From: a virus
DNA length: 64,000 bases
IMG/VR virus record: IMGVR_UViG_3300032235_000647
Location: 66,195-130,194 of that record
Reading direction: 5' to 3' (one strand)
Shown: piece after piece, positions 1 through 23,202 of the stretch
How the letters are laid out: every line of letters starts with the position of its first letter
Numbering within the stretch: position 1 is the first letter of the stretch
The notes under the pieces: generated by a model
The model's input: the letters and a program-made list of their open reading frames with translations, nothing else
What the model was told of the DNA's origin: nothing
The model's database searches: none
Translations under genes and position numbers: made by a program

Positions 1-95
1 TGAGCCTTAGGGTCTTTTTCCTTACCTTTTTCTTTATATTTACCATACCCAACGTGAGTATATTCGGCCTCTAAAAGTAAATTTTTTAATCTCAT
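1..95 (-). CDS. Partial ORF (runs off left edge), putative head-targeted internal protein
   Basis: Not in ORF track. Translates from ATG at 95 as MRLKNLLLEAEYTHVGYGKYKEKGKEKDPKA; nearly the same module (YTHIGYGRYKEKGKEKD) occurs inside the 1829-aa ORF. Confidence 0.75.
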   Translation of the reverse strand, partial: MRLKNLLLEAEYTHVGYGKYKEKGKEKDPKA

Positions 96-299: not shown

Positions 300-890
300 T
301 TAGTGTAATTCTGTTATAATTTCTCTCATCAAGTCTTGTGCTTTGCAGTAATCACCACAAACAACACCCTCTTGAATGTTTTTATTTACTGATTCTTGTA
401 ATGGAGTCATGAACGCACCATGAGTAGATGGATTAGAAACGAAATCCCAACCAATCAATTCAAAGTCATCACCAACTTTTACCTTACCTTCACCTATATT
501 CGTCACCGAACCCATACCACGAGATGATATTCCTAATAGAATACCAGCTCTTAATAACTCTTTAAGTATATTTCCTGATGGAGTTGGAAGTATTTCAACG
601 GTACCAACCAAATCATCACCATCCCAATGAATTTCTCTTACATTGTGAGAAACATTCTTCAAGTTGATTACAGAAGAATCAGGATGGTCTAACTCGCCCA
701 ATGCTCTTCTTTCTTTAATAAGAGTTTCGTATTTCTTAGCCTCTCTCATTAAGATTTCTCTTGGATATATTCTACCATTTTGGTTTTCTGCACCTGCTCG
801 TTGTAAAATACCCTTAACGAGAGTTCTTCCACTCGCGTCTTCGTTTATTCTACCTTCAAATAGGTTTGTTTCTATTAGTAATGATTTCAT
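300..890 (-). CDS. gp21: Prohead core protease (T4 gp21-like)
   Basis: Motifs NQNGRIYP, ALGELDHP, NVSH, TPSG, GISSRGMGS, DFVSNPS match gp21-family proteases; near the portal gene. Confidence 0.95.
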   Translation of the reverse strand: MKSLLIETNLFEGRINEDASGRTLVKGILQRAGAENQNGRIYPREILMREAKKYETLIKERRALGELDHPDSSVINLKNVSHNVREIHWDGDDLVGTVEILPTPSGNILKELLRAGILLGISSRGMGSVTNIGEGKVKVGDDFELIGWDFVSNPSTHGAFMTPLQESVNKNIQEGVVCGDYCKAQDLMREIITELH

Positions 891-898
891 TTTAATCC

Positions 899-2329
899 TT
901 ATCTTTTTAATTTTACAACTTTAATAGTTGGTTTTACTGCTTCGTTTACTGACTCATCAGCTGGATACTTGATACCAAATTTTGCTAGCGCTTTTCTTTT
1001 GTATTCTAACGCCTTTGCAGCTCTACTTAGATATTTTTTAAAAAATGCAAGCATCTCCTCTTTTGTATCAAATGCCTGTGACCCCCTAAACTGTGTATCA
1101 CTTAAATCAGTAGTCCAAAATGCGGCAGAACCTCTATCATAGTCATAGTATCCTACAATTTTACCATTTAATAATATTTTACCATCTTTAGCAATTAGAC
1201 TTTCGTTTACTGACTCTACTGCGTATTTGGTTTCCGATTCACCCAATTGTTTTCCAAATTCATCCCAAATCTGTAATGCTCTTTTTTGAACACCTTCTTT
1301 AGAATTACTTGCACCAACTGGAATAACTTTCTGAAGTTTACCACGAACTACAAACCCACCATACATGGTCTCACCCTTTGTAGTTTTGACTACTACTATT
1401 TGAATACCTTGTTCATTTTTAAGTTTACTTACAACTTTAATAGTTGGCTTTGATGCTTCGTTTACTGATTTACTTTCAGCCATACCATTATAAGTTAATA
1501 GTTTTTTATGTTTTTTAGCAAACATGGAAACTATTTTTAATACTTCGGCTTCACTCTTAATATATCTCTTTTCCTCAATGGTATCATTTTGTGTTCTTTG
1601 AACTAACACATGATATGTTCCTTCAATTTTTTTATCGCCATCAACATATCCAGGTCCTCTTCTTACTTCTATAAGATTTGAATATAAAGGACTATCACCA
1701 TGCATAGGATGGGGTAATATAAAGTAGTATTTTTCTTCTCCTATAAATCTACCACCTAATGGGGAATGGCCTACTTTAAGTTTATTAATACCCAATTCTT
1801 TTTTAATAATTACTTCTATTTTTTTAGCAAGATTTGATGGGAAATGTTCGGTTGCTTCGTTTACACCCCCTACTTCGGATTTTCCTTCCGATACATCCCA
1901 TTGTTTTTTAGTCATTATACTATGTCCACCAGGACTTTTCATGACCCATGCTTTTGCTTCACTACCTGATTTAAATGTTTTGACCAATTTTGGGCCTTTT
2001 GGAGTTTTTTCAATCCCAACCCATGCCCCAGATGCCATTGCTTCGTTTGTTTTACCAGCTCTTAATGCAGCTAAATCAGATGCCTCAATCTCACCATCAC
2101 CATCAACATCTAATTTGTGTTGATTGCCAGTCAATTCTTCGTTCTTTTCACCCTTAGCATCCCAAGCGGCATCAATTTTGTTAAAGAAAGCCTTTTTTTC
2201 TTCATCACTCATATCAGGAATAGACTTTCCAGCCTTTTCTAATGCTCTTTTAAAGAACTCTTGATACTCTGATTCATCTATCATTACTTCTCTTACGATA
2301 CCTTTGAATTGTTCTTTTGTTATTTTCAT
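899..2329 (-). CDS. Modular internal head/core protein with (S)VNE-separated cassettes
   Basis: 476 aa; linkers KTNEA, GVNEA, SVNEA, SVNES, SVNEA; EF-hand-like LDVDGDGEIEASDL motif; immediately upstream of the protease. Confidence 0.7.
   Translation of the reverse strand: MKITKEQFKGIVREVMIDESEYQEFFKRALEKAGKSIPDMSDEEKKAFFNKIDAAWDAKGEKNEELTGNQHKLDVDGDGEIEASDLAALRAGKTNEAMASGAWVGIEKTPKGPKLVKTFKSGSEAKAWVMKSPGGHSIMTKKQWDVSEGKSEVGGVNEATEHFPSNLAKKIEVIIKKELGINKLKVGHSPLGGRFIGEEKYYFILPHPMHGDSPLYSNLIEVRRGPGYVDGDKKIEGTYHVLVQRTQNDTIEEKRYIKSEAEVLKIVSMFAKKHKKLLTYNGMAESKSVNEASKPTIKVVSKLKNEQGIQIVVVKTTKGETMYGGFVVRGKLQKVIPVGASNSKEGVQKRALQIWDEFGKQLGESETKYAVESVNESLIAKDGKILLNGKIVGYYDYDRGSAAFWTTDLSDTQFRGSQAFDTKEEMLAFFKKYLSRAAKALEYKRKALAKFGIKYPADESVNEAVKPTIKVVKLKR
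913..1468. repeat. 40-bp direct repeat (913-952 and 1429-1468), 37/40 identical
   Basis: ttacaactttaatagttgg(ttttac/ctttga)tgcttcgtttactga; encodes SVNEA(S/V)KPTIKVV twice. Confidence 0.9.
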
Positions 2330-9175: not shown

Positions 9176-12100
9176 TTAAGCGTAAAATATACCTAAAATC
9201 TGATTTAATGAGGCAAATGCACCAGTTAATTTGAAAGTTTTACCTTGATATGTAAAAACTATACCTTCGTTTGGAACAATTTTATCAGCCCCACCGATTG
9301 CTTGTAATCTTCTCAACTCTAATTTCAATTTTTCAATCTTTTTAGGGTCTCCTGATTTCTCAACTTCCTTAATTGTTTGGTCTAATCTCTTTTTCATGTC
9401 TCGAATTGCTGCATCAGGGTTTACAGTCAATACTGATGATGTGAATTGTAGAACTTCTGCTCCAACTCCCAAGAAAATATCCTCAAATTTCATTAGGTTT
9501 TGTTTTGTGATTTTAGCTTGGTCTTCTTTATCAGTTGTTAATGCCCAATTTAACACTTTTTCATCAGTTATGTTCTTACTATCAATTCGAAACCCTTTGT
9601 CACCAAATGCCCATCTCTTGACCAATCCCATTTTGGTTTTATTATCCAACATTGATGGTGATTTTTTGTTAATATAATCATTCCACCATGCTTGATGATA
9701 CTCAGCAACACCATCAGTATCTTTCAAACCGAATTCTTTTTGTAATTTTGAGATTTTAGCAGTATATTTTCCTTTTTTAGATGAAAGGTCTTGTGATTTT
9801 GGTAAAAAAAGAACAGGAGGTCCTTGAATTGTGTAATTATCTTGAACATCTTTGTTTATTTGTTTAATCATACCCGCAAGGATTTTTGCTGCTCCTTGAT
9901 TTTCACCTATTGCATTACCTTCATCATCATATTCCATCGTTCCATGGAACACTAATAGTGGTTGTCCGTAAGGAATTACATTGACTGATGTTGGATATAT
10001 CACTTCAAGATTCATAAAACAAGCACCATCCTTAAAAATTTTAAATCGTTGGGCTTCTGAAAGTGATTTTATAGCATCGGTGAGGTCTTTCATTGCAAAA
10101 TTATACGCTTTTTCCAATTCACCTCTGCCAGTAAACTTATCTGCCACACCTTTTATGTCTAAAGCACCAGCACCTTTGTTTTTCAAGTGTCCTTTATTAC
10201 GAGCGGCAACTAATCTTCCACCTACCCATGAGATTGCAAGGGCTTGACCATCAGTTTTTTCTCGTGCAAGTTCTAAATTTCCATCCAATGCACGATTAAC
10301 AATATCTTTTAGTTGTCCAAAAGTTAAATTGATTTCGGTATCAAATGGATGATTCATGTGTCCATACGCACCACCTTCTTTTAAAAGGGATTCTTTAACG
10401 GATTGGTATTTTTTATTCCATACATATTGGAATAACTCACCCCATATAGGTCCATCAATTTTACCATCCCACTCGTAATTATATATAGGTTTACTATTAA
10501 ATGATTTGCCAGTTTTATTAAGAGCAGTTCTTCCCAACCCTTTTACATTAGTAGATTTTGGTTTTACTAATTTTTTACCACCCCAAGTTTTTTCGAGTCG
10601 TTTCTCATCTTTGTAATGTAAAAATAACTGATAACCTCTATTTACATCTTTAACCTTATCCACAATTTTCTGCATGAAATCTTCTACTTTTGGATATTTT
10701 TTTAAAAATGCTTCAACTCTTCTTGGGTCTATATATCTAGCAACTTCTTCTTTTAATTCATAAGTTTTTTTATGAATAGTATCAAGTTGTTTTCTCAACT
10801 TTTTCATTTCCTTCTCATGATTATCCATCCACGCTTGGTCAGGATATCCATGAGGTGCTAATTCATCTATTTTTTTATTTATTTTTCTGAATTTATCCAA
10901 TTCTATTTCACGAAGTTGTTTTAATGCTTCCTCATAAGTTTCATGGGTACCTAATTTTTCACCACCAGTTTTACGATATACCACCCACTTATTATCTACT
11001 TTTTGAATTGTTTCTTCTATCTTTTTAAGTTTCGTATAATATTTTGGGTCTTCAAATAGGTGGTCCATTGCTATTTCTTTTGCAATATCAGTATCAGTAG
11101 TATGTTCCCTTTCTACTTTATACCCCTTTTTGAATTCATCCATCAATTCTGAAACTGGGATATTGTGTTTTTTAGCAATATCAGATAAACTCATACCTTG
11201 TGATAATCCACCTGGTATTTTAGATTCCTTTTTAATTGATTTCGTACTATTCATAAATTCTTGTGGTGATTTAAAATGAGCTTTTAATATACGATTGTAT
11301 TTAGATGTTTTGTTTCCATCACCATGTACCATTAGAGGTATTCCTTGGTCTACTGCTCTTCCTAATTCAAATTTTGATGGAACTTCGTGAACTAATTCAA
11401 AACCAGGTAGGCTTCCTAAATAATATTCTTGGGTATCGTACTCTTCCCAAGAATGATTGTACATATAGCCAGTAGCTCCTGCAGCATCGTTAGGAGTCAT
11501 TGAACCCCTGACCCCATCATAAAAACCACTATTGACTTCATCTATTAAATTTTCCGATTCAAAGGATAGAATAGGATCAGATGATTTAAAATCATCCTTT
11601 CGCATCACCGTTTTTGCAATGGCCTGATTTGCTTGTTTAACAAAAGGAATGTTTATATCATATCTTTTATCTCTAACAACTATTTCTTTATATTTCTCTA
11701 AAAATTCTTTAAATTTATTTTTTATTCTTGATAATCTTTTAAAGAATCCTGTTAATTCAGCATCAGAAATCGGTTTACCATTTCTTGGATCATTTACTCT
11801 ATCAAAGAAATGTTGAGTAAACTCAATATCTTGTGGTGATAATTGTTTTTCTGCATATCTCTCAACACCTCTTAATTGAGACATACTCATTTCATTTGTT
11901 GGAGTATCAAAAGTTAAATTACTTGGATATTGGTTAACCGATTTGAATCTATCTGCTTCCTTTTGCTTTAATGCAGGAAGGAATCTAAATTTGGCAAGTT
12001 TAACAATTTTTCTTTTCTTTTTTTGAACCATTTGAGATACTCTAGTCTTTTGTGGTAAAGAGAGTTCATTATAAGGAGTCATTCCAAATAATCGTTGAGT

Positions 12101-14665
12101 CCATTCTTTCCTTACATACAAGTAAGCAAGTTTGTATGCTCTTTTATATAAAACTGAATATGGTTTTTTACGAATTTGTGTTCGTTGTTTTTTAATGTTG
12201 ATTAGTTTTTTATTTTTTGCAAAACTCCATCTCCTTGCAGCTCTTTGTGCTTGAGTTAAAGCCTCATCCAAACTTTCTTCATCTTCCCACTCTTCTAATT
12301 CTGCAAAATCATACTCTTGTTGCTGAGAATCCCAACCACAAGTGTGACATAAATATGGATGTTCATCTTTTACTTCAAGTTCCCATTCATGTTCACATAT
12401 TTCACATTTAATAGAAGTTCCAGCAATGGATTCCATCATAATTGGATCAGAACCCATCCACTCATTTTTCATCATATTGTCTACTAACTCAACATGAGAT
12501 TCACCAGCTAATACAATAGGAATTTTACCTTGTGAAGATAATTCTTTTGTTTTTCTTAACAAATTTACATCTCTGAATTTATTAAAAGATTCTTGTGCAG
12601 CATGTATTTTTGTTTTCTTATCACCATAATCATCTGCAAAAGATAATCTATATAGAGTATCAACATCTTCTTCAGTTGGATTTGAATCCCATGTATTCGA
12701 TAAAGGTAGATTTGCTTCTTGTGCTGATTGTTTTAAAAGTTCTTTACCTTTATCGGTTAAGTAATCTTCAGGTGACATATCTTCTACACTATCACCTTGT
12801 CCTATCATACTTGCCCAATTGGCAGCCATGACTTCTTCATTACTTAATCCAGTTTCTTGTTCTTGGTATTTGTATAGTGGAGATTCATTATCAAATACAC
12901 TTGTCTCGTCACCATCCCATGTATCAATTCCTGCACCAATTTTTTGGAATTTCTTTGCAGCATAATCCATTTCGCCACCAAATTCCAACTCACCCTCATC
13001 ATTACCCATTCCACCTTCACCTACAAACACAACGTCTTTCCATCTATCTTGTGGTATAGTTGATTTTACTTTATCAAGTATATCATCAACCATTTTTTTA
13101 TTTCCATGAACGGTTCCAAATACTTGCCCACCACCTTCAAGTTCGGTTGTTTGAATTTCCTTACCTGATTTAGCTCCTTGAAATGTATTTACACCTGATT
13201 TAGGTTGTTGTTTTTTAGCAGGATCACTTGATGGTAGTGAATCCTTATATCCACTATCTTTTGAAAAAATATTTTGTTTTGGTTTATTTTCAGGTGTAGA
13301 ATCACCACTCTCTATTGGAGTGTATTTACCACTATCATCTTTTTTAAAAATAGGAGCAGAAGAATCTTTTTCTTTACCTTTTTCCTTATATCTACCATAC
13401 CCAATATGGGTATATTTTTCATCTTCTTTATCGGCCTCAAAGAAAACTTGCTTTCCTTCCTTAACCAATCTGAATGTGACAACTTTTTTGCCATTTATAG
13501 TTGGCATCCCGTGTTCGTCTTTACCGATTGTTTTTACAACTACTTTTTTATTTTTGAATTTACCCATCAATAGAGTATCTCCAATTTCAACTGGTAACGT
13601 GATTGATTCCTTAACAACCTTTTTATCAGATTCTTTTGAAAGTTCTCTAGCACCTTTAGCAAGTTGTGTTGAAAGTTTATCATCAACATTTAATGCTTTA
13701 TCAACTACTGAATAACCAACTAATGATGCAGTACGAGTCACGTGTTTATACCACTTATCATAAGCACCATTTACCATTACATCAAATTCACCCATTGGGT
13801 CTTTTTTACCAATAGCACCTCTTGGAAAAAATGTAACTCTACCACTTGGTCCTTCTGGGTATGTAATATAATCATCCATTGAATCATCCATAACCATATT
13901 GATTATTTCCCATCCAATTTGTTGAGCTCTTTCGCCGTTGATGACTTTAAACGAATTATAGTCCGGTAAGAAAATAACAGGACCATCATCAACCATATCT
14001 TGGCCAAATCCAGATGATACTTCTATGAGTAAATCTTCAAGTTGTGTTTTAGATAATCTGATACAAGATTCTTGTAACTTATTTGTAATAAGGTTGAATA
14101 TTGTTTTGTTGAATTTAGAATATGCTCTATCTACAAAAAAGTTCTTTTTTTGTTCTTCACTTCCACTTCCCAATCCAATTCTTACTTCGGTTCCACTTAC
14201 TCCTCCGCCACCCTCAGGTGCCACATAAATATATCCCTTATCTTTATATCCTTCGGTTGGGTTACCATCCCACTTTGCAAAATATTTACCACCCAATCTA
14301 CTTGCATCTTTTTGGCCAACTACGGTTACAAAAGCAGTAGTTTTTTCATCAAACTTTTTTAGGATTTCGGTAGGTGCATAAGGATTCTTGACCTCGTATA
14401 TTTTGTTTGATGGAACACCAAACATCGTGGTCATAATTTGTTTTTTCTCCTTAAAATTAAATGGAGATTTTGGTTTTTCTACTTTATCAGAAGTTCCTAT
14501 AAATACATTATCTTTTCCGAACTTACTAACTAAATGTGAATAAGTTGCATAATGACCTTTATGAAAAGGTTGAAATCTACCTGCATAAATGACTACTGTC
14601 TTTTTTATGGGGGTAGATTCCTCTAATAATATTTGTTCTACTAAATATCTTGAAAGTTCGTTCAT
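9176..14665 (-). CDS. 1829-aa multi-domain protein: HxGH nucleotidyltransferase, TraB/Tiki-like, Zn ribbon, BECR-like, DUF5661-like and ligase-like domains
   Basis: YAGRFQPFHKGH; FGTVHG..GEGG..FRD..AGESHV; CEIC..CHTC; FTQHFFDR..KTVMRK; KVEREHT..AKEIAMDHL.E.P.YY; EKTDGQ..EGIVF..FKLTG. Confidence 0.75.
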   Translation of the reverse strand: MNELSRYLVEQILLEESTPIKKTVVIYAGRFQPFHKGHYATYSHLVSKFGKDNVFIGTSDKVEKPKSPFNFKEKKQIMTTMFGVPSNKIYEVKNPYAPTEILKKFDEKTTAFVTVVGQKDASRLGGKYFAKWDGNPTEGYKDKGYIYVAPEGGGGVSGTEVRIGLGSGSEEQKKNFFVDRAYSKFNKTIFNLITNKLQESCIRLSKTQLEDLLIEVSSGFGQDMVDDGPVIFLPDYNSFKVINGERAQQIGWEIINMVMDDSMDDYITYPEGPSGRVTFFPRGAIGKKDPMGEFDVMVNGAYDKWYKHVTRTASLVGYSVVDKALNVDDKLSTQLAKGARELSKESDKKVVKESITLPVEIGDTLLMGKFKNKKVVVKTIGKDEHGMPTINGKKVVTFRLVKEGKQVFFEADKEDEKYTHIGYGRYKEKGKEKDSSAPIFKKDDSGKYTPIESGDSTPENKPKQNIFSKDSGYKDSLPSSDPAKKQQPKSGVNTFQGAKSGKEIQTTELEGGGQVFGTVHGNKKMVDDILDKVKSTIPQDRWKDVVFVGEGGMGNDEGELEFGGEMDYAAKKFQKIGAGIDTWDGDETSVFDNESPLYKYQEQETGLSNEEVMAANWASMIGQGDSVEDMSPEDYLTDKGKELLKQSAQEANLPLSNTWDSNPTEEDVDTLYRLSFADDYGDKKTKIHAAQESFNKFRDVNLLRKTKELSSQGKIPIVLAGESHVELVDNMMKNEWMGSDPIMMESIAGTSIKCEICEHEWELEVKDEHPYLCHTCGWDSQQQEYDFAELEEWEDEESLDEALTQAQRAARRWSFAKNKKLINIKKQRTQIRKKPYSVLYKRAYKLAYLYVRKEWTQRLFGMTPYNELSLPQKTRVSQMVQKKKRKIVKLAKFRFLPALKQKEADRFKSVNQYPSNLTFDTPTNEMSMSQLRGVERYAEKQLSPQDIEFTQHFFDRVNDPRNGKPISDAELTGFFKRLSRIKNKFKEFLEKYKEIVVRDKRYDINIPFVKQANQAIAKTVMRKDDFKSSDPILSFESENLIDEVNSGFYDGVRGSMTPNDAAGATGYMYNHSWEEYDTQEYYLGSLPGFELVHEVPSKFELGRAVDQGIPLMVHGDGNKTSKYNRILKAHFKSPQEFMNSTKSIKKESKIPGGLSQGMSLSDIAKKHNIPVSELMDEFKKGYKVEREHTTDTDIAKEIAMDHLFEDPKYYTKLKKIEETIQKVDNKWVVYRKTGGEKLGTHETYEEALKQLREIELDKFRKINKKIDELAPHGYPDQAWMDNHEKEMKKLRKQLDTIHKKTYELKEEVARYIDPRRVEAFLKKYPKVEDFMQKIVDKVKDVNRGYQLFLHYKDEKRLEKTWGGKKLVKPKSTNVKGLGRTALNKTGKSFNSKPIYNYEWDGKIDGPIWGELFQYVWNKKYQSVKESLLKEGGAYGHMNHPFDTEINLTFGQLKDIVNRALDGNLELAREKTDGQALAISWVGGRLVAARNKGHLKNKGAGALDIKGVADKFTGRGELEKAYNFAMKDLTDAIKSLSEAQRFKIFKDGACFMNLEVIYPTSVNVIPYGQPLLVFHGTMEYDDEGNAIGENQGAAKILAGMIKQINKDVQDNYTIQGPPVLFLPKSQDLSSKKGKYTAKISKLQKEFGLKDTDGVAEYHQAWWNDYINKKSPSMLDNKTKMGLVKRWAFGDKGFRIDSKNITDEKVLNWALTTDKEDQAKITKQNLMKFEDIFLGVGAEVLQFTSSVLTVNPDAAIRDMKKRLDQTIKEVEKSGDPKKIEKLKLELRRLQAIGGADKIVPNEGIVFTYQGKTFKLTGAFASLNQILGIFYA

Positions 14666-16271: not shown

Positions 16272-16809
16272 AATATAATTCAGGATATTCTACTAAAATA
16301 ATTGGTCCATTTGATGATAATGCTTTTTTATATGCAGGAAGAATTTTATCAGCTGAATCCAATTTTATAATGGGAATATGTTTTAACATTGAAGAAAATT
16401 CATCAGAATAATCTGCCTTATGTTGATGGCCAGGATCCAATGGTTTATCAGAACCCTTTCCTACTCTAATGATTACATTTGGAATAAATTGACCATCTGA
16501 CATTGATTCAAGTTTATCCAAATGATTTATTAATTGGTTTGATGCACAAATAAGAAAATCCCATCTTGGATAAAATGATACTACACGATGACCTGTCATG
16601 GCCAACCCAATACTCATACCCATCTGAGTTTCCTCCATTACTGGAGTTTCAATCATTCGTTCTTTTGGTAACCCTTCAATAGTTTTACTCATTGGGTTTC
16701 CATAATATACAATTTGTTGGCCAATAAAAATTGTGGAAGGGTCTTCCATGCACAATTTCATTGATTCTGTCAATGCATCTAAATACGGTGTATATTGTGG
16801 TGAACTCAT
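16261..16809 (-). CDS. TPP-dependent enzyme, E1-beta/transketolase pyrimidine-binding domain only
   Basis: ETPVMEETQMGMSIGLAMTG, DFLICASNQLIN, GHQH; 182 aa, lacks the E1-beta C-terminal domain. Confidence 0.85.
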   Translation of the reverse strand: MSSPQYTPYLDALTESMKLCMEDPSTIFIGQQIVYYGNPMSKTIEGLPKERMIETPVMEETQMGMSIGLAMTGHRVVSFYPRWDFLICASNQLINHLDKLESMSDGQFIPNVIIRVGKGSDKPLDPGHQHKADYSDEFSSMLKHIPIIKLDSADKILPAYKKALSSNGPIILVEYPELYYEN

Positions 16810-17801
16810 TATGGTCTTGAATTTGGATTATACTGATGTTTGTTTTCTTTATACCACTCAAGTGTTTCTTTAAGTGCCTGTTTCAAATCTCTTTTAGGTT
16901 TCCAACCTGCTGTATTTATTTTCTTTGATGATAATAAACGAATCGGAATCATTGGTGCCTTATTATTTACATAAGAAATAGGATTATCATTTCCTTCTAT
17001 TTCTTTAATCCATCCCAACACTTCATTTACACTAAATCCTTCACCATACGCAACATTAAAGATATTATATGTATCGTTGTTTTCGGCAACCCAAATGAAC
17101 CCATCTGCCATATCTTCAACATGAAGTAAATCTCTAACTTCAGAGCCATCACCCCATACTGGAATTGGATTTAATCCATCAGCAACTTTACGAATATTTG
17201 CAGGAGTAACATGACATTTTTCGAAATCAAATTTATCGTTTGGTCCAAATGCATTTGAAGGTCTAACAATCAAACACTGCATTGGATTGTGAATTTGGTG
17301 TGAAAAATAATCACAAAGTAATTCACCATATCGTTTCATATTACCAACTGCTCCATAAATTGGAAAAGTTGGAGTTGCGTGAATGTTTATATCTTCGGTA
17401 CAAAACTCATCCTTCATATCAGGATAAACGGTATTAGATGAAATGAATAGAAATTTCTTTACTCCATTTCTCCAACTTTGTTCCATAAGATTTACATTCA
17501 TTTCAACATTAGGTGTTACATGAAGTAATGGATTTTCTTTTGTATCTAATGCGTTAGATGTATTTGCTGCACAATGAAATACAACATCTACATCCTTTGT
17601 AACATTTTCACAAAAAAACTTTGTCTGCAAATCACCTTGAAAATGGTGTACTGATTCCCATCCATCAAAATCACCTCTTAAATCTCTTGAAAAAGAAGTT
17701 GATCTTAAATTTCTATAACCTTTTTCCCAAAGTAATCGCAGTAAATGTGAACCAATGAATCCACTTGCACCCGTAACTAAAATAGTATCTGTTTTTTTCA
17801 T
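16809..17801 (-). CDS. NDP-sugar epimerase/reductase (GDP-fucose synthase-like extended SDR)
   Basis: TGASGFIG, RPSNAFGPNDKFD..HV.PA.I, VWGDGSEVRDLLHVED. Confidence 0.85.
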   Translation of the reverse strand: MKKTDTILVTGASGFIGSHLLRLLWEKGYRNLRSTSFSRDLRGDFDGWESVHHFQGDLQTKFFCENVTKDVDVVFHCAANTSNALDTKENPLLHVTPNVEMNVNLMEQSWRNGVKKFLFISSNTVYPDMKDEFCTEDINIHATPTFPIYGAVGNMKRYGELLCDYFSHQIHNPMQCLIVRPSNAFGPNDKFDFEKCHVTPANIRKVADGLNPIPVWGDGSEVRDLLHVEDMADGFIWVAENNDTYNIFNVAYGEGFSVNEVLGWIKEIEGNDNPISYVNNKAPMIPIRLLSSKKINTAGWKPKRDLKQALKETLEWYKENKHQYNPNSRP

Positions 17802-17804
17802 AAC

Positions 17805-18770
17805 TTATTTTTTATACTCATTTAAATAATAATCAATTGTTTGTTTTAATCCTTCTTTAAGGGATACTTGTTGAATAATACCAAATGATTCTGCTCTTTC
17901 GGTACTCATCAATCTTTTTGTATCGCCGTTTGGTTTTGTTGGGTCCCACTCAATATCCACTTTAACTCCATACATTTCTTCGTAGATTTCTACAAGAGTT
18001 TCTGCAAGTTCTTTGATTGTTACACCAGTTCCACTACCCAAATTAATTGGTTGTGTTAATTTTTGTTCGTACGCCTTAATAATTCCATCGGCAATATCAC
18101 CTGCATAGATAAAATCTCTAATAGGTGAACCATCTCCCCAACATACCAATGGATGTTCTTTTTCACCAAACAATCTTTTAATAAGTGATGCAATTACGGT
18201 TGATTCAGGTCCAAAATTATCGTGTCTACCATAAATGTTAGCAGGTCTTACAATTGACGCCTTATTCCAGTCATAAGATACTGAATAAACTTCTGCTTGT
18301 AATTCACCTAGTCTCTTTGCCCATCCAGCATATTTATCTTTTTCCGATGGGAAAGTTTTCCAAACATCATCTTCATAAAATACTTCTGCTGGTTGATAAA
18401 CTCCAACCGTTGAAGTGTATACATACCATTCAACATCTTCCAATCTTGCTGCTTCCATCATATTGGTGTTGAATTGTAACATTGGTACAAAATAATCTGC
18501 AGGTTGCTCCATTGCTCTTTTCGGAGAACCCTTTACACCTGCAATATGAAAAATTATTTCTTGTCCTTTTACAACTTGTTTACACGAATCAAATTCTCTC
18601 AAATCTGCCTTGATAAACTGATAATTACCATCTTTATACTTTTCAACTTGATTCATTGGTTCGTGGATATCCACTGCTGTTACAAGTGCACCTTTATCGA
18701 TACACTTTTGAACCATATAATTACCAACTAATCCATTGGCACCTGTTATTAAAACCTTTTTACCTTCCAT
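17805..18770 (-). CDS. NDP-sugar epimerase/reductase (GDP-fucose synthase-like extended SDR)
   Basis: TGANGLVG, RPANIYGRHDNF, WGDGSPIRDFIY, INLGSG, WDPTKPNG. Confidence 0.85.
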   Translation of the reverse strand: MEGKKVLITGANGLVGNYMVQKCIDKGALVTAVDIHEPMNQVEKYKDGNYQFIKADLREFDSCKQVVKGQEIIFHIAGVKGSPKRAMEQPADYFVPMLQFNTNMMEAARLEDVEWYVYTSTVGVYQPAEVFYEDDVWKTFPSEKDKYAGWAKRLGELQAEVYSVSYDWNKASIVRPANIYGRHDNFGPESTVIASLIKRLFGEKEHPLVCWGDGSPIRDFIYAGDIADGIIKAYEQKLTQPINLGSGTGVTIKELAETLVEIYEEMYGVKVDIEWDPTKPNGDTKRLMSTERAESFGIIQQVSLKEGLKQTIDYYLNEYKK

Positions 18771-18805
18771 TTTCTTATTTTATATATACATATATGTTTT
18801 TATTT

Positions 18806-19930
18806 TTATATTGGTTTCCTACCATCGTTTTTAATTAAATCAGTAAAATTTGATTGAATATAAATTTTATTAAATTTATATAAACGATTTACTTCATCAA
18901 CAAAATTATGATATTCATTATGCTCCTCCATCCAAACTGCTTTACGTGTAAATGATTCATAATCCATGTGAGTCCATTGATATATTTTACCAAAATAAAC
19001 AAGAGTTGCTTCGGAGTATTGTTGTTTCTGAATTCTATTTTCAAATTTTTTGTAAATCAATTCAGCAAACTCCCTCATTTCTTTGTAATTATCTAATTGA
19101 GTAACAAATGAACATCTTAAATTTTGTATAGTCGGTATAGTACTAATAAAATCTAAATTCTCCATTAAAACTTCCCAATTACCACCAATTCTTGTTTTAT
19201 TTTCGTAGGTATCTTTTGTAGCAGCATCTATTGATATTTCTACTGATTTAACATACGGATGTGCCTTTTCTATCCTCTTCCAATTCTTTTCATTAAATAA
19301 ATTGGCATTAGTTGTCAAATAAATATCATCCAAATTTGGCCATAATTTTGGGTCAAATTCAAATAAAAATTTTCTAAATGATTTTGATGCCCAAGGGTCA
19401 CCACTACCTGTTATTGCTAATTTTCTTGCTTCTTTTGAATAGTTATTTTTTATAAAATCAGTTATATTATCAATTTTTATAATTTCATTTGGTTTTGCCA
19501 TTATAACGTGTAATCTACATGATGGACATTTTAAATTACAACTATCATCATAAGTAAAATTAATTGAACCAGGTCCTGAACTTATATTTTTGTCATCTAC
19601 TACAAATCCATCATGCATTTTAAATGGTAATTTTTCTTTTTCTACAAAAAATCCACTTGCTTTTTGAGTGTTTATCAATGTACTTAAATGAGGACAGGCA
19701 GTTTTATGACAATGTGAATACGAACCATCTAAAACAGATTCTCTGATTTTATTTGCAGTTTCAGATTTCCAAACATCGTAATTTAATGTACCATCTTCAT
19801 TTTTACCATACCATAATTTTGTTTCCAACCAAGTTGGACAACATAATGTTGCATGGTCTTCAAAAAATTCTATATGTTTGAATGGTTGAATACAAATATA
19901 TTTTTTAAGAATGTCTTCTTTATTTTTCAT
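18806..19930 (-). CDS. Radical SAM protein with N-terminal SPASM/Twitch-like Cys domain
   Basis: CNLKCPSC; N-terminal C..P..CC..C...CP cluster; GSGDPW. Confidence 0.85.
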   Translation of the reverse strand: MKNKEDILKKYICIQPFKHIEFFEDHATLCCPTWLETKLWYGKNEDGTLNYDVWKSETANKIRESVLDGSYSHCHKTACPHLSTLINTQKASGFFVEKEKLPFKMHDGFVVDDKNISSGPGSINFTYDDSCNLKCPSCRLHVIMAKPNEIIKIDNITDFIKNNYSKEARKLAITGSGDPWASKSFRKFLFEFDPKLWPNLDDIYLTTNANLFNEKNWKRIEKAHPYVKSVEISIDAATKDTYENKTRIGGNWEVLMENLDFISTIPTIQNLRCSFVTQLDNYKEMREFAELIYKKFENRIQKQQYSEATLVYFGKIYQWTHMDYESFTRKAVWMEEHNEYHNFVDEVNRLYKFNKIYIQSNFTDLIKNDGRKPI

Positions 19931-19931
19931 G

Positions 19932-21053
19932 TTACAGATTTTTAAAAAACAAACTTATACCATCCATTTTCATTTGATTAAAATGATTTTTATTATATAT
20001 ACAAATTTCTTTTGTTTGCTGGTATAGTTCATTTAGTTTATTTATATCATATGAATTTAATTTTAAAACCACTTCAGAAATTTTAAAATATCTTTCTCTA
20101 GGCTCAAATATTGTATCATATGATTCATCCCAAAATTTTGAAAAGGTTTTAAATCCCAATCTTTTTAACTCTTTAAGATAGTTACAAGGCCCAAAAACTA
20201 TAAATGGTTGATAATTTAAAATCGGTTTTAAAATCTTTTCTGATATAAACAATTCGTTATTTACATACGATGATTCAGTTACCAAATGAATACACGAATT
20301 TAAAAATAAATCTTTCCGCATAGTATTGTTAACAGTAAAATTAAAATTTTTATTTGTATCCAACTCTATCGGAATATGTTTTATATATTCTTCTACTTGT
20401 AATTTCTGTTCTTGAAAAGGAAAACAATGTATTCCTTCAAATGTTAAAAAACTAAAATACGAATCACTAAAATCATTTGTTAAATAATCATGTAATAATG
20501 AATATCTGTGTTCTTTATCTACCGTTCTATTAAACGATAAAAATTTTTTACTTCTAAATTTATTTAGTTCATCTAATGATATCTCTTCACTTTTGTATCC
20601 CAAATCAGTTTTAACATTAAAAAATGAATTTTTATGATTGATTGCATCTTCAAGAAAAAAATGATAAGAATATACATTTCTTTCTTGCAAATTTACATTA
20701 CTAGTTAAGAATATACATCTATGTAAAATTCCATGCTTTTTTAATTTTAAAGCTAATTTTCTATATCTTTCAAACGGTGGTGCGTCTGCAATAGAACATA
20801 ATATTATTTTTAAATCATGTTCTTCTATAAATTTTTTAATATCTACTTTTCGTAAAATAGCATCAATTCTCTTTTCAAGAGCATGATACATTTCAGTAGG
20901 CTCTATCAATATGTAATTTTTATAATCTGTTTTAATATTTGGAAATTGTGTACACGAATATTCATTTATGACCTTTTGAGTCATAGGTCCTTCGAAACAC
21001 CACTTTCCATAATTTGATTCAGGTGGTAAAATAAAATTTAAAAAACTACCCAT
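19932..21053 (-). CDS. Putative glycosyltransferase, GT10-like (paralog 2)
   Basis: KKFLSFNR..HR, LVTES..FISEKILKPI..QPFIVFG..GFKTFSKFWDESYD. Confidence 0.65.
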   Translation of the reverse strand: MGSFLNFILPPESNYGKWCFEGPMTQKVINEYSCTQFPNIKTDYKNYILIEPTEMYHALEKRIDAILRKVDIKKFIEEHDLKIILCSIADAPPFERYRKLALKLKKHGILHRCIFLTSNVNLQERNVYSYHFFLEDAINHKNSFFNVKTDLGYKSEEISLDELNKFRSKKFLSFNRTVDKEHRYSLLHDYLTNDFSDSYFSFLTFEGIHCFPFQEQKLQVEEYIKHIPIELDTNKNFNFTVNNTMRKDLFLNSCIHLVTESSYVNNELFISEKILKPILNYQPFIVFGPCNYLKELKRLGFKTFSKFWDESYDTIFEPRERYFKISEVVLKLNSYDINKLNELYQQTKEICIYNKNHFNQMKMDGISLFFKNL

Positions 21054-21676
21054 TTTCCCGTCCCATAATGTGGGTATTTAGATTTATATTTATAATAAAT
21101 TACATCACTTGGTATTTCTCTCTGAATGCCACCCCATGTATATGATGTTGGTGTATTGGTTGAAACTTCGTTATCTTCTACTACAAAATATAGTGGTAAA
21201 TTGAAATTTCTTGCGTATTTATGAACTTCATAAAAGAATCCAGTTTCAAAAGTCATGTCACCAATAAAACACCAAACTTTTTCATCACTACCTTTTAGTT
21301 TTATTGATTTTGCAACTCCAAGTGCAATAGGTAATGTACCTGTTACAATTGCAGACGAATAAAAATTAGATTCTTTATCTACGATAGTTATTGATTTTCC
21401 ATCAAGAATTTTTTCTTTTAATGTAGATGGTTTAACTCCGTGAAGAAGTGCATGATAATGAGATCTCCAAGTTGAAAATACCCAATCGGTTGGCGATATT
21501 TTTTTGAATACTTCAATAAGTTGTTCTTCATTTCCATTTGATAAATGAATAGGTCCTTTTATTTCTCCTTTTTCCCAATGAGAAATAATATCATCTTCAA
21601 AATGAATAAGTTCTTCCTTATTCCAGTTACCATCCAACCATCGGTCTTCATGATAATTTAAATTTTTAATTTCCAT
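21038..21676 (-). CDS. TPP-dependent E1-alpha-like subunit
   Basis: GPIHLSNGNE, STWRSHYH, TPP motif GDM(x)nEDN. Confidence 0.85.
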   Translation of the reverse strand: MEIKNLNYHEDRWLDGNWNKEELIHFEDDIISHWEKGEIKGPIHLSNGNEEQLIEVFKKISPTDWVFSTWRSHYHALLHGVKPSTLKEKILDGKSITIVDKESNFYSSAIVTGTLPIALGVAKSIKLKGSDEKVWCFIGDMTFETGFFYEVHKYARNFNLPLYFVVEDNEVSTNTPTSYTWGGIQREIPSDVIYYKYKSKYPHYGTGKWVVF

Positions 21677-22250
21677 TTTTATCTCTTTTTGACAAGATTG
21701 GGTTTTCGGTTGGCCAATCTATATTAAATCTTGAATCGTTCCATACAATAGTATGTTGTTTATTTTCATCATTATATTCACCCTCGTATGCCATTTTATA
21801 TGAGAAAATGGAATCATCTTCCATTACAAAATGTCCATTTGCAAAATAAGGCGGAACAAGAACTTGAGTTCCAGTTTCAGGTGAGAGAATAAATGATTCC
21901 CATTTACCAAAATCAGGTGTTTTTTCTCTTACATCTAAAACTACTAAATAAATTCTACCGTGTGGACACGAAACTAATTTCCAAGTTTTTTCATCCCAAT
22001 GTAAACCTCTAAGAACACCTTTTTTAGATTTAGAATATCTATCATGTTTAAATGCTAACCCATCATTTCTATCGGCTGCTGGTAGTAATCTATCGTAATA
22101 GTCTGAATGATAGGTTGTTGATATTGAACCACGAATTTCGTGATAAATTGATGGTTGTACAATTTTTACTTGTGGTAAAACCGACCCATTATAAAAATGA
22201 AAATCGTTCCAACTTCTTTCTTTATAAAATATACTACGTCCTTGTGCCAT
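21666..22250 (-). CDS. rmlC: dTDP-4-dehydrorhamnose 3,5-epimerase family
   Basis: SKKGVLRGLH, KLVSC..G.I..V.LDVR..PDFGKW, VPPYFANG, WND..FNIDWP, ILSKRD. Confidence 0.9.
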   Translation of the reverse strand: MAQGRSIFYKERSWNDFHFYNGSVLPQVKIVQPSIYHEIRGSISTTYHSDYYDRLLPAADRNDGLAFKHDRYSKSKKGVLRGLHWDEKTWKLVSCPHGRIYLVVLDVREKTPDFGKWESFILSPETGTQVLVPPYFANGHFVMEDDSIFSYKMAYEGEYNDENKQHTIVWNDSRFNIDWPTENPILSKRDKNGN

Positions 22251-23202
22251 AACCTAATGGAAATCCATTTCTATATTTTGATGATAAATCTTGTATTAAA
22301 ATTGTGTAAGTTTTTATAAGTTCGTCAATACCATCATCTAAACTCCAATCAGGATTCCATCCAGTAGATTCTAGTTTGGCATTTGAAACTAAATAATCTC
22401 GTTTATCAGGGTCTTGGTAAAAATCAGAATAAGTGATTGCAAAATCAGGAACAAATTCTTTAATTTTTTCTACCAATTGAGCTTTTGTTAAATTTGCAGA
22501 TGTCAACCCTACATTAAATACTTCACCTTGAAATTTTTCGTAATTTTCTATCATATATTCAAATGTTTTTGCAACATCTCGGATATGAATGTAATTTCTT
22601 TGAAAATTTTTCTCAAAAATAGTGATGTATTTATCAGTTAATGCTTTGTAAACAAATTCGTTTACCAACAAATCCATTCTCATTCTTGGAGATGAACCAA
22701 ATACGGTGGCAAGTCTTATTGAAATGCCACCGATATTAAGAACCTCTCTCTCGGCTTTAACTTTGGTCACTCCATAGTGTGATATAGGGTTAAGTGGACT
22801 TTCTTCAGTACACTCACCATTCTCGCCTATCCCATACCCACTATTTGTATTTGGATATATTACTTTTATATCAGTACCTCTAACTAAATCACAAATGGTT
22901 TTTACATGAGTATAATTTACTGCAGTTGCTAAATCTCTATCTCTATCACATGCAGGAAATCCTACAATTGCAGCTAATGGAATTATAACATTAAAAGTTG
23001 GTACTAGTTTTTCTAATAAACTAGTATCTCTAACATCACCATAAATAAAATGGAATCTTTTATTATAAGAGTAATGAATTAGGGATGTTTGATTATACAT
23101 CAAATTATCTAATACGGTAACTTCGTGACCACTATCAAGTAGTCTATCTACCAACACCGAACCGAGGTATCCTGCCCCTCCTGTAATTAGTACTTGTTTC
23201 AT
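22234..23202 (-). CDS. NAD-dependent NDP-sugar epimerase/dehydratase (extended SDR)
   Basis: TGGAGYLGS, YGVTK (YxxxK), RLATVFGSSPRMRMDLLVN. Confidence 0.9.
   Translation of the reverse strand: MKQVLITGGAGYLGSVLVDRLLDSGHEVTVLDNLMYNQTSLIHYSYNKRFHFIYGDVRDTSLLEKLVPTFNVIIPLAAIVGFPACDRDRDLATAVNYTHVKTICDLVRGTDIKVIYPNTNSGYGIGENGECTEESPLNPISHYGVTKVKAEREVLNIGGISIRLATVFGSSPRMRMDLLVNEFVYKALTDKYITIFEKNFQRNYIHIRDVAKTFEYMIENYEKFQGEVFNVGLTSANLTKAQLVEKIKEFVPDFAITYSDFYQDPDKRDYLVSNAKLESTGWNPDWSLDDGIDELIKTYTILIQDLSSKYRNGFPLGYGTRT

Follow-up and report, generated by a model that had tools for sequence, protein, structure and literature searches.

A 1829-residue multi-module protein of a T4-like phage as a candidate head-targeted polyprotein with predicted cleavage sites at its module joints

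Processed Head Proteins of Large Phages

The prohead protease of bacteriophage T4, gp21, cleaves after glutamate in the motif L/I-X-E (PMC9026906). The internal proteins of T4 carry core-targeting propeptides of 10–19 residues, which are removed at an L/I-X-E site (PMC9026906), and IPI, IPII, IPIII, and Alt were described to possess a capsid targeting sequence, to be cut by gp21, and to be ejected with the DNA (PMC9026906, PMC3012670). In phiKZ, 201phi2-1, and SPN3US, head and ejection proteins are cut at S/A-X-E by a diverged gp21 homologue (PMC9026906, PMC5694885, PMC7411985, PMC10052503), and the propeptide regions of phiKZ were found to hold several redundant sites (PMC9026906). Domains of the polyvalent proteins are released by embedded peptidases (PMC5512222). 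The present analysis concerns an open reading frame (ORF) of 1829 amino acids (aa) at positions 9176–14665, minus strand, of a 64,000-nucleotide stretch (the window; positions 66,195 to 130,194 of the IMG/VR record IMGVR_UViG_3300032235_000647), which is the final 64 kb of a 130-kb viral contig that has a G+C content of ~30% and carries all of its genes on the minus strand. The ORF is a single open frame with an ATG start, and the mass of the predicted precursor is 208 kDa. Its product is probably a cargo polyprotein that is directed to the head and processed by the prohead protease.

The phage is a distant relative of T4 and is not phiKZ-like. Its 1829-aa protein resembles the T4 internal proteins and Alt in several respects, including an S77 protease, a short leader that ends in hydrophobic-x-Glu, glutamate at P1 with Leu, Ile, or Val at P3, a gene placed among head genes, and a diverse, quickly changing cargo. 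In T4, however, each such protein has its own gene and leader, whereas here about 13 predicted cargo proteins lie in one 1829-aa precursor; the predicted cargo also includes putative enzymes of 20 and 44 kDa, which T4 does not package. The predicted likeness to the phiKZ, 201phi2-1, and SPN3US proteins lies in large head proteins cut after glutamate at several sites, redundant double sites, and mass ejection of protein together with the DNA, and the differences lie in P3, which here is L/I/V and not S/A/G, and in the exchangeable enzyme units between two conserved ends.

The preliminary description of this protein had linked it to the polyvalent proteins of phages, which are treated in Iyer et al. 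(2017; PMC5512222). The link holds for the many unrelated domains per chain (2–15 in the polyvalent proteins), and also for the predicted packaging, early action, and shuffling. It does not extend to the means of release. The polyvalent proteins depend for release on an embedded peptidase, such as MPTase, and are linked with MuF or portal domains, whereas a trans-acting prohead protease is proposed here; neither an embedded peptidase nor a MuF or portal domain was matched by Pfam in the protein or its pieces, several modules of which lack an assignable fold and could conceal a peptidase. Compared with all three of these protein classes, the predicted arrangement of many exchangeable units, enzymes among them, in one precursor with a site for a trans-acting prohead protease at each joint would be distinctive.

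Glutamate at the Module Joints

About 13 unrelated modules follow one another in the chain, delimited by breakpoints of homology. Module borders had initially been placed at eleven glutamates resembling protease sites. All eleven are present (Glu 199, 215, 353, 410, 745, 801, 925, 1043, 1218, 1306, and 1430), the motif VKES occurs twice, at Glu 353 and also at 1425, and further joints were located at 16, 1036, 1147, 1268, and 1425. The borders were recovered by BLAST searches that made no use of the glutamate rule. Similarity to 120 relatives ended at recurrent positions, and against a set thinned to 171 sequences, the ends of similarity clustered near 197, 403, 1036, 1219, and 1303 and the starts near 348, 747, 924, 1145/1154, and 1427. 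These motif-blind breakpoints coincide with the named sites and with a few of the further joints. Glutamate made up 16.9% of the residues at internal ends of BLAST high-scoring segment pairs (HSPs), compared with 6.5% in the background, and aspartate was flat.

The joint glutamate was counted over 271 relatives, and only those contexts that were at most 50% identical to one another were included. It was present in all 34 distinct contexts at the start of the xITLPVEIGD (KOW-like) module, in 26/26 at the start and 24/24 at the end of the module of aa 926–1036, in 16/16 at the end of the DUF5661 module, and in 8/8 at the start of the HGYPD module. Slightly lower counts were obtained at the starts of the zinc ribbon (8/9) and of the DDGP module (20/23), and 64 of the 72 contexts before the GGAYGHM of the ligase-like domain had glutamate. 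The rule was also followed by modules that are absent from this protein, namely internal CCA-adding (16/16) and P-loop kinase (4/4) modules. The residues upstream of the glutamate vary. The xITLPVEIGD module is preceded by KLNE, VVKE, SLKE, IVDE, and others, the zinc ribbon in relatives by YIAE or FVTE, and the ligase domain by LLKE, LLME, or MISE, with a further site frequently lying five residues upstream. Over 243 pooled sites, P3 was Leu (87), Ile (56), Val (25), or Met (13) in 181 (74%, versus 22% in the background), and P2 was frequently Asn (58). The pattern at P3 and P1 corresponds to the L/I-X-E rule of T4 gp21 (PMC9026906).

A protease of the T4 gp21 type (Peptidase_S77) is encoded in the same gene cluster (300–890, minus strand). 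It matches PF03420 (E 2.6e-27; 96 bits versus a cut-off of 27) and also the head maturation protease family PHROG 207 (E 1.3e-50), and is proposed to be the processing enzyme of the 1829-aa chain.

When compared as DNA, the joints of the ORF, 16 in number, have only the Glu codon in common, and the signal therefore resides in the protein. This observation bears on whether the joint motif might be a site of cassette exchange, either a recombination signal or the scar of gene fusion, and not a protease site. Modules are gained, lost, and reordered precisely at the joints, and those of a 476-aa neighbour repeatedly read (S/G)VNE, as cassette exchange would have it. The lack of any shared DNA beyond one codon argues against such a signal, however, as does the fact that conservation concerns the amino acids at P1 and P3, in accordance with the known specificity of the family to which the nearby protease belongs. 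Exchange in place of cleavage is considered very improbable, and the two processes are compatible with each other.

Leaders and Separate Ligase Genes

A 16-residue leader ending in LLEE is shared by most of the relatives, 166 in all, whose first module is the nucleotidyltransferase. In seven loci of close relatives (L006–L011 and L014), the ligase is encoded by a separate ORF in another frame, and this ORF begins with a 15-residue leader, MIRLxK(I/L)LNE-VLLKE, that is followed by GGAYGHM. Three more distant loci (L017, L021, and L026) have the ligase fused in frame, like the present ORF. Distant stand-alone homologues of the ligase have leaders of 14–30 residues that end in hydrophobic-x-E, or else they start with M-GGAYGH (P0252 and P0259); some phages therefore have, as their actual N-terminus, the one predicted for the mature protein. 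Starts of the form M...hydrophobic-hydrophobic-x-E were found in 10 of 20 ORFs of the head cluster, versus 12 of 98 elsewhere in the contig (Fisher p = 4e-4). The same element, KSTRLTSILKE, occurs as the leader of one small ORF and as an internal joint of a 933-aa neighbour.

These forms are also informative about a second explanation, according to which the protein remains an uncleaved cytoplasmic enzyme for RNA repair or nucleotide handling, with several domains in one chain as in fungal Trl1, and the glutamates at the joints reflect a style of linker. The two end domains are kept together in a short, 639-aa form in Microcystis phage Mel-JY01 and likewise in many relatives, and may work together within a single polypeptide; kinase, HD, and CCA modules are added in relatives in the manner of single-chain heal-and-seal enzymes, and cleavage is itself a prediction from sequence. 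A permanently joined enzyme is, however, difficult to reconcile with a ligase that is a separate gene in the seven close relatives, behind a leader ending in the same motif, and with homologues that start precisely at GGAYGH. More than ten unrelated modules keep the joint glutamate and L/I/V/M at P3, for which no linker requirement accounts, and the gene lies in the head cluster beside the S77 protease. An uncleaved enzyme is accordingly regarded as unlikely.

The Terminal Enzymes and Structural Models

The HxGH domain near the N-terminus was identified by PF01467 (E 8.1e-6; 26.5 bits versus a cut-off of 21), with FHKGH at residues 34–38, in agreement with its initial designation as an HxGH nucleotidyltransferase. 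In a PDB search with the whole protein, only weak matches to nicotinamide mononucleotide (NMN) adenylyltransferases (NMNATs) were obtained, among them that of this domain to NadM 2qjt (E 4e-4). Identity as an NMN adenylyltransferase fell far below the NCBIfam cut-offs (best 33.5 versus 449 bits; NMNAT subfamily 29.4 versus 127), and the NCBIfam NMNAT alignments cover only the first ~60 residues.

Judged by its structural model, which has a predicted local distance difference test score (pLDDT) of 93.4, the C-terminal domain is of the RNA-ligase-type adenylyltransferase fold, and its activity is predicted. A Foldseek search with this model gave weak matches only, with RNA ligases at the top, and polynucleotide ligases were found in all 50 matches listed by VIA-align. 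Motif I (K1470-T-D-G) contributes K40, D42, and G43 in domain numbering, and these three residues did not vary among 25 sequences or among 33 distant full-length relatives. The invariant E124, H144, and E370 and the near-invariant G371 and K382 fit NLEVIY, VFHG, EGIVF, and KLTG, which were assigned by eye to motifs III, IIIa, IV, and V and are split by a long helical insert. The earlier label of a ligase-like domain is sustained by this confident predicted fold and the invariant KxDG. No Pfam, PHROG, or NCBIfam family matched the domain, and a profile search against PDB sequences retrieved no ligase, giving only a spurious eS6 match in a low-complexity helical stretch. The domain resembles T4 RNA ligase 1 with Pnkp, as well as fungal Trl1, which heal and seal tRNA, in its invariant KxDG and in the P-loop kinase, HD, and CCA modules that its relatives add. 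It differs from them in showing 10–15% identity and no match to a family model, in its long helical insert, and in having no kinase, HD, or CCA module in the same chain here.

An AlphaFold2 (AF2) model of aa 200–1399 (1200 residues), built with 60 relatives, was poor, with a mean pLDDT of 55.8 and only three confident stretches. Foldseek found nothing at E ≤ 0.001 with this model, and VIA-align wide covered only the domain of aa 490–740, with tied middling matches. Of the 12 joints in the model, 11 fall in segments with pLDDT < 50, compared with 617 of its 1200 residues (51%) overall. As for the view that the sites separate domains, none of the named sites is spanned by a confident domain, with the exception that site 1218 is situated at a transition from helix to strand; with so poor a model the comparison is a weak one.

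Constant Ends and a Variable Middle

A word-based search identified 1194 relatives of 1005–3201 aa among 8000 candidates scored. In an exhaustive search with the last 410 residues, 1789 representative clusters were found at E ≤ 1e-3 and 566 at E ≤ 1e-30; their members are ~400–1930 aa long, and the ligase-like domain is nearly always C-terminal. Conservation is found at the two ends, in the N-terminal nucleotidyltransferase and in the C-terminal domain (74–83% identity of the latter in the top 120), and the modules in between vary in content and order. Pfam matches in 33 distant long relatives comprised CTP_transf_like (26), DUF5661 (8), PolyA_pol with its RNA-binding domain (5), a P-loop kinase of the AAA_33 or Zeta_toxin type (4), HD (4), and SprT-like (1). 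Small proteins of cultured relatives follow the same arrangement of modules and joints. Flavobacterium phage immuto encodes a 252-aa protein that consists of a leader ending in IIKE, DUF5661 ending in IEE, and a module ending in IALE, and in phage Melnitz a stand-alone module of the aa 926–1036 type stops one residue past the joint position.

The terminases of the loci L006–L011 are 97–99% identical to that of the window, yet the modules of their polyproteins and the fusion or separation of the ligase differ. This fast turnover at a fixed genomic place suggests a role in phage–host conflict. It also bears on a third explanation, in which the protein is cut in the prohead and not delivered, acting as part of the scaffolding core or as a head filler or organiser whose fragments mostly leave before DNA packaging, like T4 gp22 and gp67. 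Core proteins of T4 are each cleaved to several fragments, most of which exit the head (PMC9026906); many pieces of the chain are small (4–15 kDa), and its YTHIGYG motif is shared with the 933-aa neighbour behind the protease. Module turnover at such terminase identity nonetheless resembles an arms race and not an assembly constraint, a pure scaffold would have no need of two conserved enzymes with intact motifs (HxGH; KxDG with a confident ligase fold), and a separate acidic scaffold-like protein (a 362-aa ORF) exists. A role confined to the core is therefore judged improbable.

Two artefactual or mobile origins of the architecture were rejected. An assembly chimera was dismissed on the ground that the same architecture is found in many independent contigs, and an intein or homing insertion between the end domains on the grounds that no such domain was found and that the modules are known elsewhere as stand-alone units. 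Neither a description of the family nor a virion proteome from a relative was encountered in the literature covered, outside which lay subscription journals and supplements (including the lists behind PMC5512222, in which the family might appear).

Predicted Processing and Packaging

The predicted processing at the glutamate joints by the phage protease is well supported by the comparison of sequences, because glutamate is kept in many unrelated contexts with L/I/V/M at P3 and an S77 protease is encoded in the cluster, and because the split forms carry a leader with the same motif and some homologues begin at the predicted mature N-terminus. Packaging is suggested by the conserved position of the locus, by its leader and the over-representation of similar starts among head-cluster ORFs, and by the precedent of T4 (PMC9026906). 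By analogy with that precedent, the larger pieces would be packaged and delivered with the DNA. The preliminary description had proposed a packaged, protease-processed toolkit against host defence. Its processing is supported by the comparison; its packaging and its action against defence are inferred only, and no recognised anti-defence domain was found in the 1829-aa protein. The CCA-adding, HD, and P-loop kinase modules of relatives point to RNA repair.

In the proposed mechanism, the precursor would be synthesised late, alongside the head genes, and its short amphipathic leader would bring it into the scaffolding core of the prohead. The T4 gp21-type serine protease would then cleave after the Glu of hydrophobic-x-Glu at ~15 joints, as the comparison of relatives suggests, and free ~13 proteins of 4–44 kDa along with a few short spacer peptides. 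Like the internal proteins and Alt of T4, the larger pieces may remain with the DNA and enter the next host. Two of the pieces would be constant, namely the HxGH nucleotidyltransferase and a new RNA-ligase-like enzyme, whose mature N-terminus would be the conserved GGAYGHM. The pieces between these enzymes would form a fast-changing set, in which relatives have, among others, a P-loop kinase, a CCA-adding enzyme, and a phosphohydrolase of the HD type. Given this set in relatives, the task of the cargo is most likely the immediate repair of RNA or tRNA, together with other early counter-measures.

Several observations weigh against this reading. The number of motifs in the protein is at chance, with 19 [LI]xE sites versus 18.3 ± 3.8 in 1000 shuffles, and the same is true of the wider motifs [LIV]xE (26 versus 26.9 ± 4.6) and [LIVMF]xE (36 versus 37.1 ± 5.0); what exceeds chance is the position of the glutamate sites and not the number of motifs. 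Moreover, 8 of the 19 [LI]xE sites fall within modules. A rule based on the motif alone would therefore cut inside domains, and some further determinant has to be assumed. Joints without Leu or Ile at P3 also occur in this protein (FFE, MME, TNE, SFE, and KKE). Across relatives, glutamate was found in only 8 of 12 contexts at the start of DUF5661, and 8 of the 72 ligase contexts had Cys (4), Met (3), or Asn (1) in its place. Counts at a fixed offset were low at the end of the N-domain (14/37), the end of the KOW-like module (21/37), and the start of the YTH motif (0/6), where glutamate was seen by eye at a variable distance. The conservation of joint glutamates measured from HSPs (mean 0.67 versus 0.43, p = 0.006) is noisy at HSP edges, and site 745 scored 0 by this measure through an offset of one residue. 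Site 1218 lies in a confident stretch of the AF2 model, and low pLDDT at the other sites need not mean a linker. The N-terminal leader is absent from some relatives (P0240, P0218, P0166, and P0132), and the S77 protease was detected in one of four related records searched, the other three being fragments. None of the kinase, HD, and CCA modules is present in the 1829-aa protein. Finally, cleavage, presence in the virion, and ejection are themselves predictions that derive from sequences and models.

A broader proposal is advanced tentatively, at somewhat less than even confidence. It combines a general loading grammar in this clade of T4-like phages with a hypervariable, injected arsenal that a family of more than 1,700 sequence clusters would have assembled around two constant enzymes, one of them a new RNA ligase whose active form would need the protease-made N-terminus GGAYGHM. 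The arsenal would act in the repair of tRNA or other RNA and against host defences ahead of all phage gene expression. Under this grammar, a unit behind hydrophobic-x-Glu, encoded either in its own gene with a leader or within a chain, might be carried into the prohead and freed there by the S77 protease. If the chain is cut as predicted, the principle of the T4 internal proteins would extend from single small proteins to sets of enzymes in one precursor, and a simple rule would be available by which the proteins that accompany the DNA could be predicted in uncultured T4-like phages. The same rule could serve for placing selected proteins in phage heads, a use already made of the T4 targeting sequence. 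The analysis also marks out a very large, unmodelled RNA-ligase-like family (1789 representative clusters) and a pool of small modules. The cultured relatives, Flavobacterium phage immuto and Microcystis phage Mel-JY01, make the prediction directly testable.

Module Map of the Chain

The leader, MNELSRYLVEQILLEE, occupies aa 1–16 (14618–14665; this and all further features of the chain are on the minus strand), contains three hydrophobic-x-E sites (E10, E15, and E16), and is, on the basis of its sequence, a candidate capsid-targeting propeptide. It is followed by the HxGH (cytidylyl/adenylyl) nucleotidyltransferase of PF01467 (aa 17–199; 14069–14617), which ends in KLQE and at whose end the BLAST breakpoints cluster at 197. 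A short spacer peptide (aa 200–215; 14021–14068) lies between two sites, LQE and LLIE, the second of which reads LINE↓S, LISE↓S, or LIEV in relatives (↓ marks the joint position). The DDGP-motif module (aa 216–353; 13607–14020) ends in VVKE, has no Pfam or PHROG match, and was modelled with low AF2 confidence. The small module xITLPVEIGD...TINGKK (aa 354–410; 13436–13606) ends in VFFE and is likewise without a Pfam match; its place in relatives may be after the N-domain, after the DDGP module, or ahead of the ligase. Its initial KOW/SH3-like label could not be verified, with no Pfam match and a model of low confidence.

A basic, mostly disordered stretch (aa 411–499; 13169–13435) opens with the motif EDEKYTHIGYGRYKEKGKEKD and contains small strands in the AF2 model (pLDDT ~74). 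A motif of this YTHIGYG type is present twice in the 933-aa ORF, both times just behind an LxE site. In its general form, (E/D)xKYTH(I/V)GYGxYKxKGKEKD...FKKxDxGKY, it was observed three times in the genome, each time directly after a predicted cleavage site, and it might anchor cargo to the DNA or to the core. The folded alpha/beta domain that follows (aa 500–745, with the fold at about aa 490–730; 12431–13168) ends in IMME and is possibly ChaN/TraB-like. The TraB-like designation given earlier is unverified; the structural search with aa 490–740 gave tied middling matches.

The zinc ribbon (aa 746–801; 12263–12430), C-x2-C-x17-C-x2-C, ends in SLDE; its four cysteines uphold the earlier assignment, and the Pfam zinc-ribbon matches are weak (E 0.045–0.67). 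The next module (aa 802–925; 11891–12262) ends in PTNE and matches PHROG 23027 (E 1.9e-4). It had been described as very basic and helical, which is consistent with its pI of 10.9 and with the AF2 helices at aa 840–899 (pLDDT 85–90). The module MSMSQL...YAEKQLSP...HFFDRVNDPRN (aa 926–1036; 11558–11890) ends in LSFE and matches PHROG 23027 and 14518, which have no assigned function. The spacer SENLIDE (aa 1037–1043; 11537–11557) forms the second half of a double site. The term BECR-like, which had been applied to this region, is unverified, as aa 926–1043 had no Pfam match at E ≤ 5 and an AF2 pLDDT < 50. Atlas look-ups of aa 500–745 and 926–1043 returned only unnamed viral clusters. A module without a Pfam or PHROG family match (aa 1044–1147; 11225–11536) ends in SIKKE, and BLAST starts and ends cluster at 1141–1154.

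The DUF5661 module (aa 1148–1218; 11012–11224) ends in KIEE; the label of DUF5661-like was confirmed by PF18905 (E 3e-15), and the AF2 pLDDT is 72–90. It is followed by a small module of a beta-hairpin and a helix (aa 1219–1268; 10862–11011), which ends in KIDE, matches PHROG 3684 (E 1.4e-8), and in AF2 shows strands at model residues 1021–1042 and then a helix. The helical LAPHGYPDQ module (aa 1269–1306; 10748–10861) ends in ELKE, and the upstream ORF of the relatives L006 and L007 terminates just past it. The module of aa 1307–1425 (10391–10747) ends in SVKE, and the upstream ORF of L008 and L009 terminates at about its end. Searches of Pfam, PHROG, and NCBIfam with the DDGP, KOW-like, 411–745, 802–925, 926–1043, 1044–1147, and 1307–1430 pieces gave no usable names. 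The spacer SLLKE (aa 1426–1430; 10376–10390) stands immediately before the predicted RNA-ligase-like covalent nucleotidyltransferase (aa 1431–1829 and stop; 9176–10375), which starts GGAYGHMNHPFD and has its motif I at K1470-T-D-G. Before GGAYGHM, a Cys (LLLC↓GG) or a Met (ELLLM↓GG) is found in the distant relatives P0134, P0137, P0164, P0176, P0206, and P0232 and in P0177, P0180, P0184, and P0194. The Met could be an internal start, and where Cys is present, the protease might be a different one or release might take another route.

Genomic Neighbourhood

Along the direction of transcription, sugar-nucleotide enzymes and a 488-aa protein precede the 1829-aa ORF, which is followed by ORFs of 218, 115, and 139 aa, the large terminase, a 149-aa ORF, the T4-type portal, three ORFs without a family, and the prohead protease. 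The portal (PF07230, E 2.8e-67) belongs to the same co-oriented cluster as the 1829-aa ORF. Beyond the window edge lie the 933-aa ORF, several small ORFs, the acidic scaffold-like protein, and the major capsid protein. The position of the polyprotein between tail-fibre genes and terminase is conserved in 11/11 related loci examined, as is the order of the 218-aa ORF and then TerL downstream of it (11/11). Among cultured phages, the portal is closest to those of Microcystis phage Mel-JY01 (52%) and of Flavobacterium phage immuto (48%), and a complete related record of 213.6 kb contains the S77 protease.

Leaders observed in the head cluster (G000:C1 60440–69173, window up to 2979) include MKLTKLLKE, MKLNQILQE, MKSTRLTSILKE, MANSKLLKE, MKSLLIE, and others. 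The 933-aa ORF lies right after the protease (L005 5501–8302, minus strand, equivalent to G000:C1 63500–66302), and its start reaches window positions 1–95. It begins with MRLKNLLLE followed by AEYTHVGYGKYKEKGKEKD, a motif that is repeated after the internal KSTRLTSILKE joint, and further contains a ParB/Srx-like DGHHRW motif and a Pro-rich C-terminal tail of ~300 residues with runs of 9–12 Pro. It is probably a second head polyprotein. The 476-aa ORF (899–2329, minus strand), located just upstream of the protease, has the joints GVNE↓A, SVNE↓A, SVNE↓S, and SVNE↓A, and its leader carries IVRE and IDE. Upstream of the polyprotein (16809–23202, minus strand), several nucleotide-sugar epimerase/dehydratase-like genes and a dTDP-4-dehydrorhamnose epimerase-like gene were observed.

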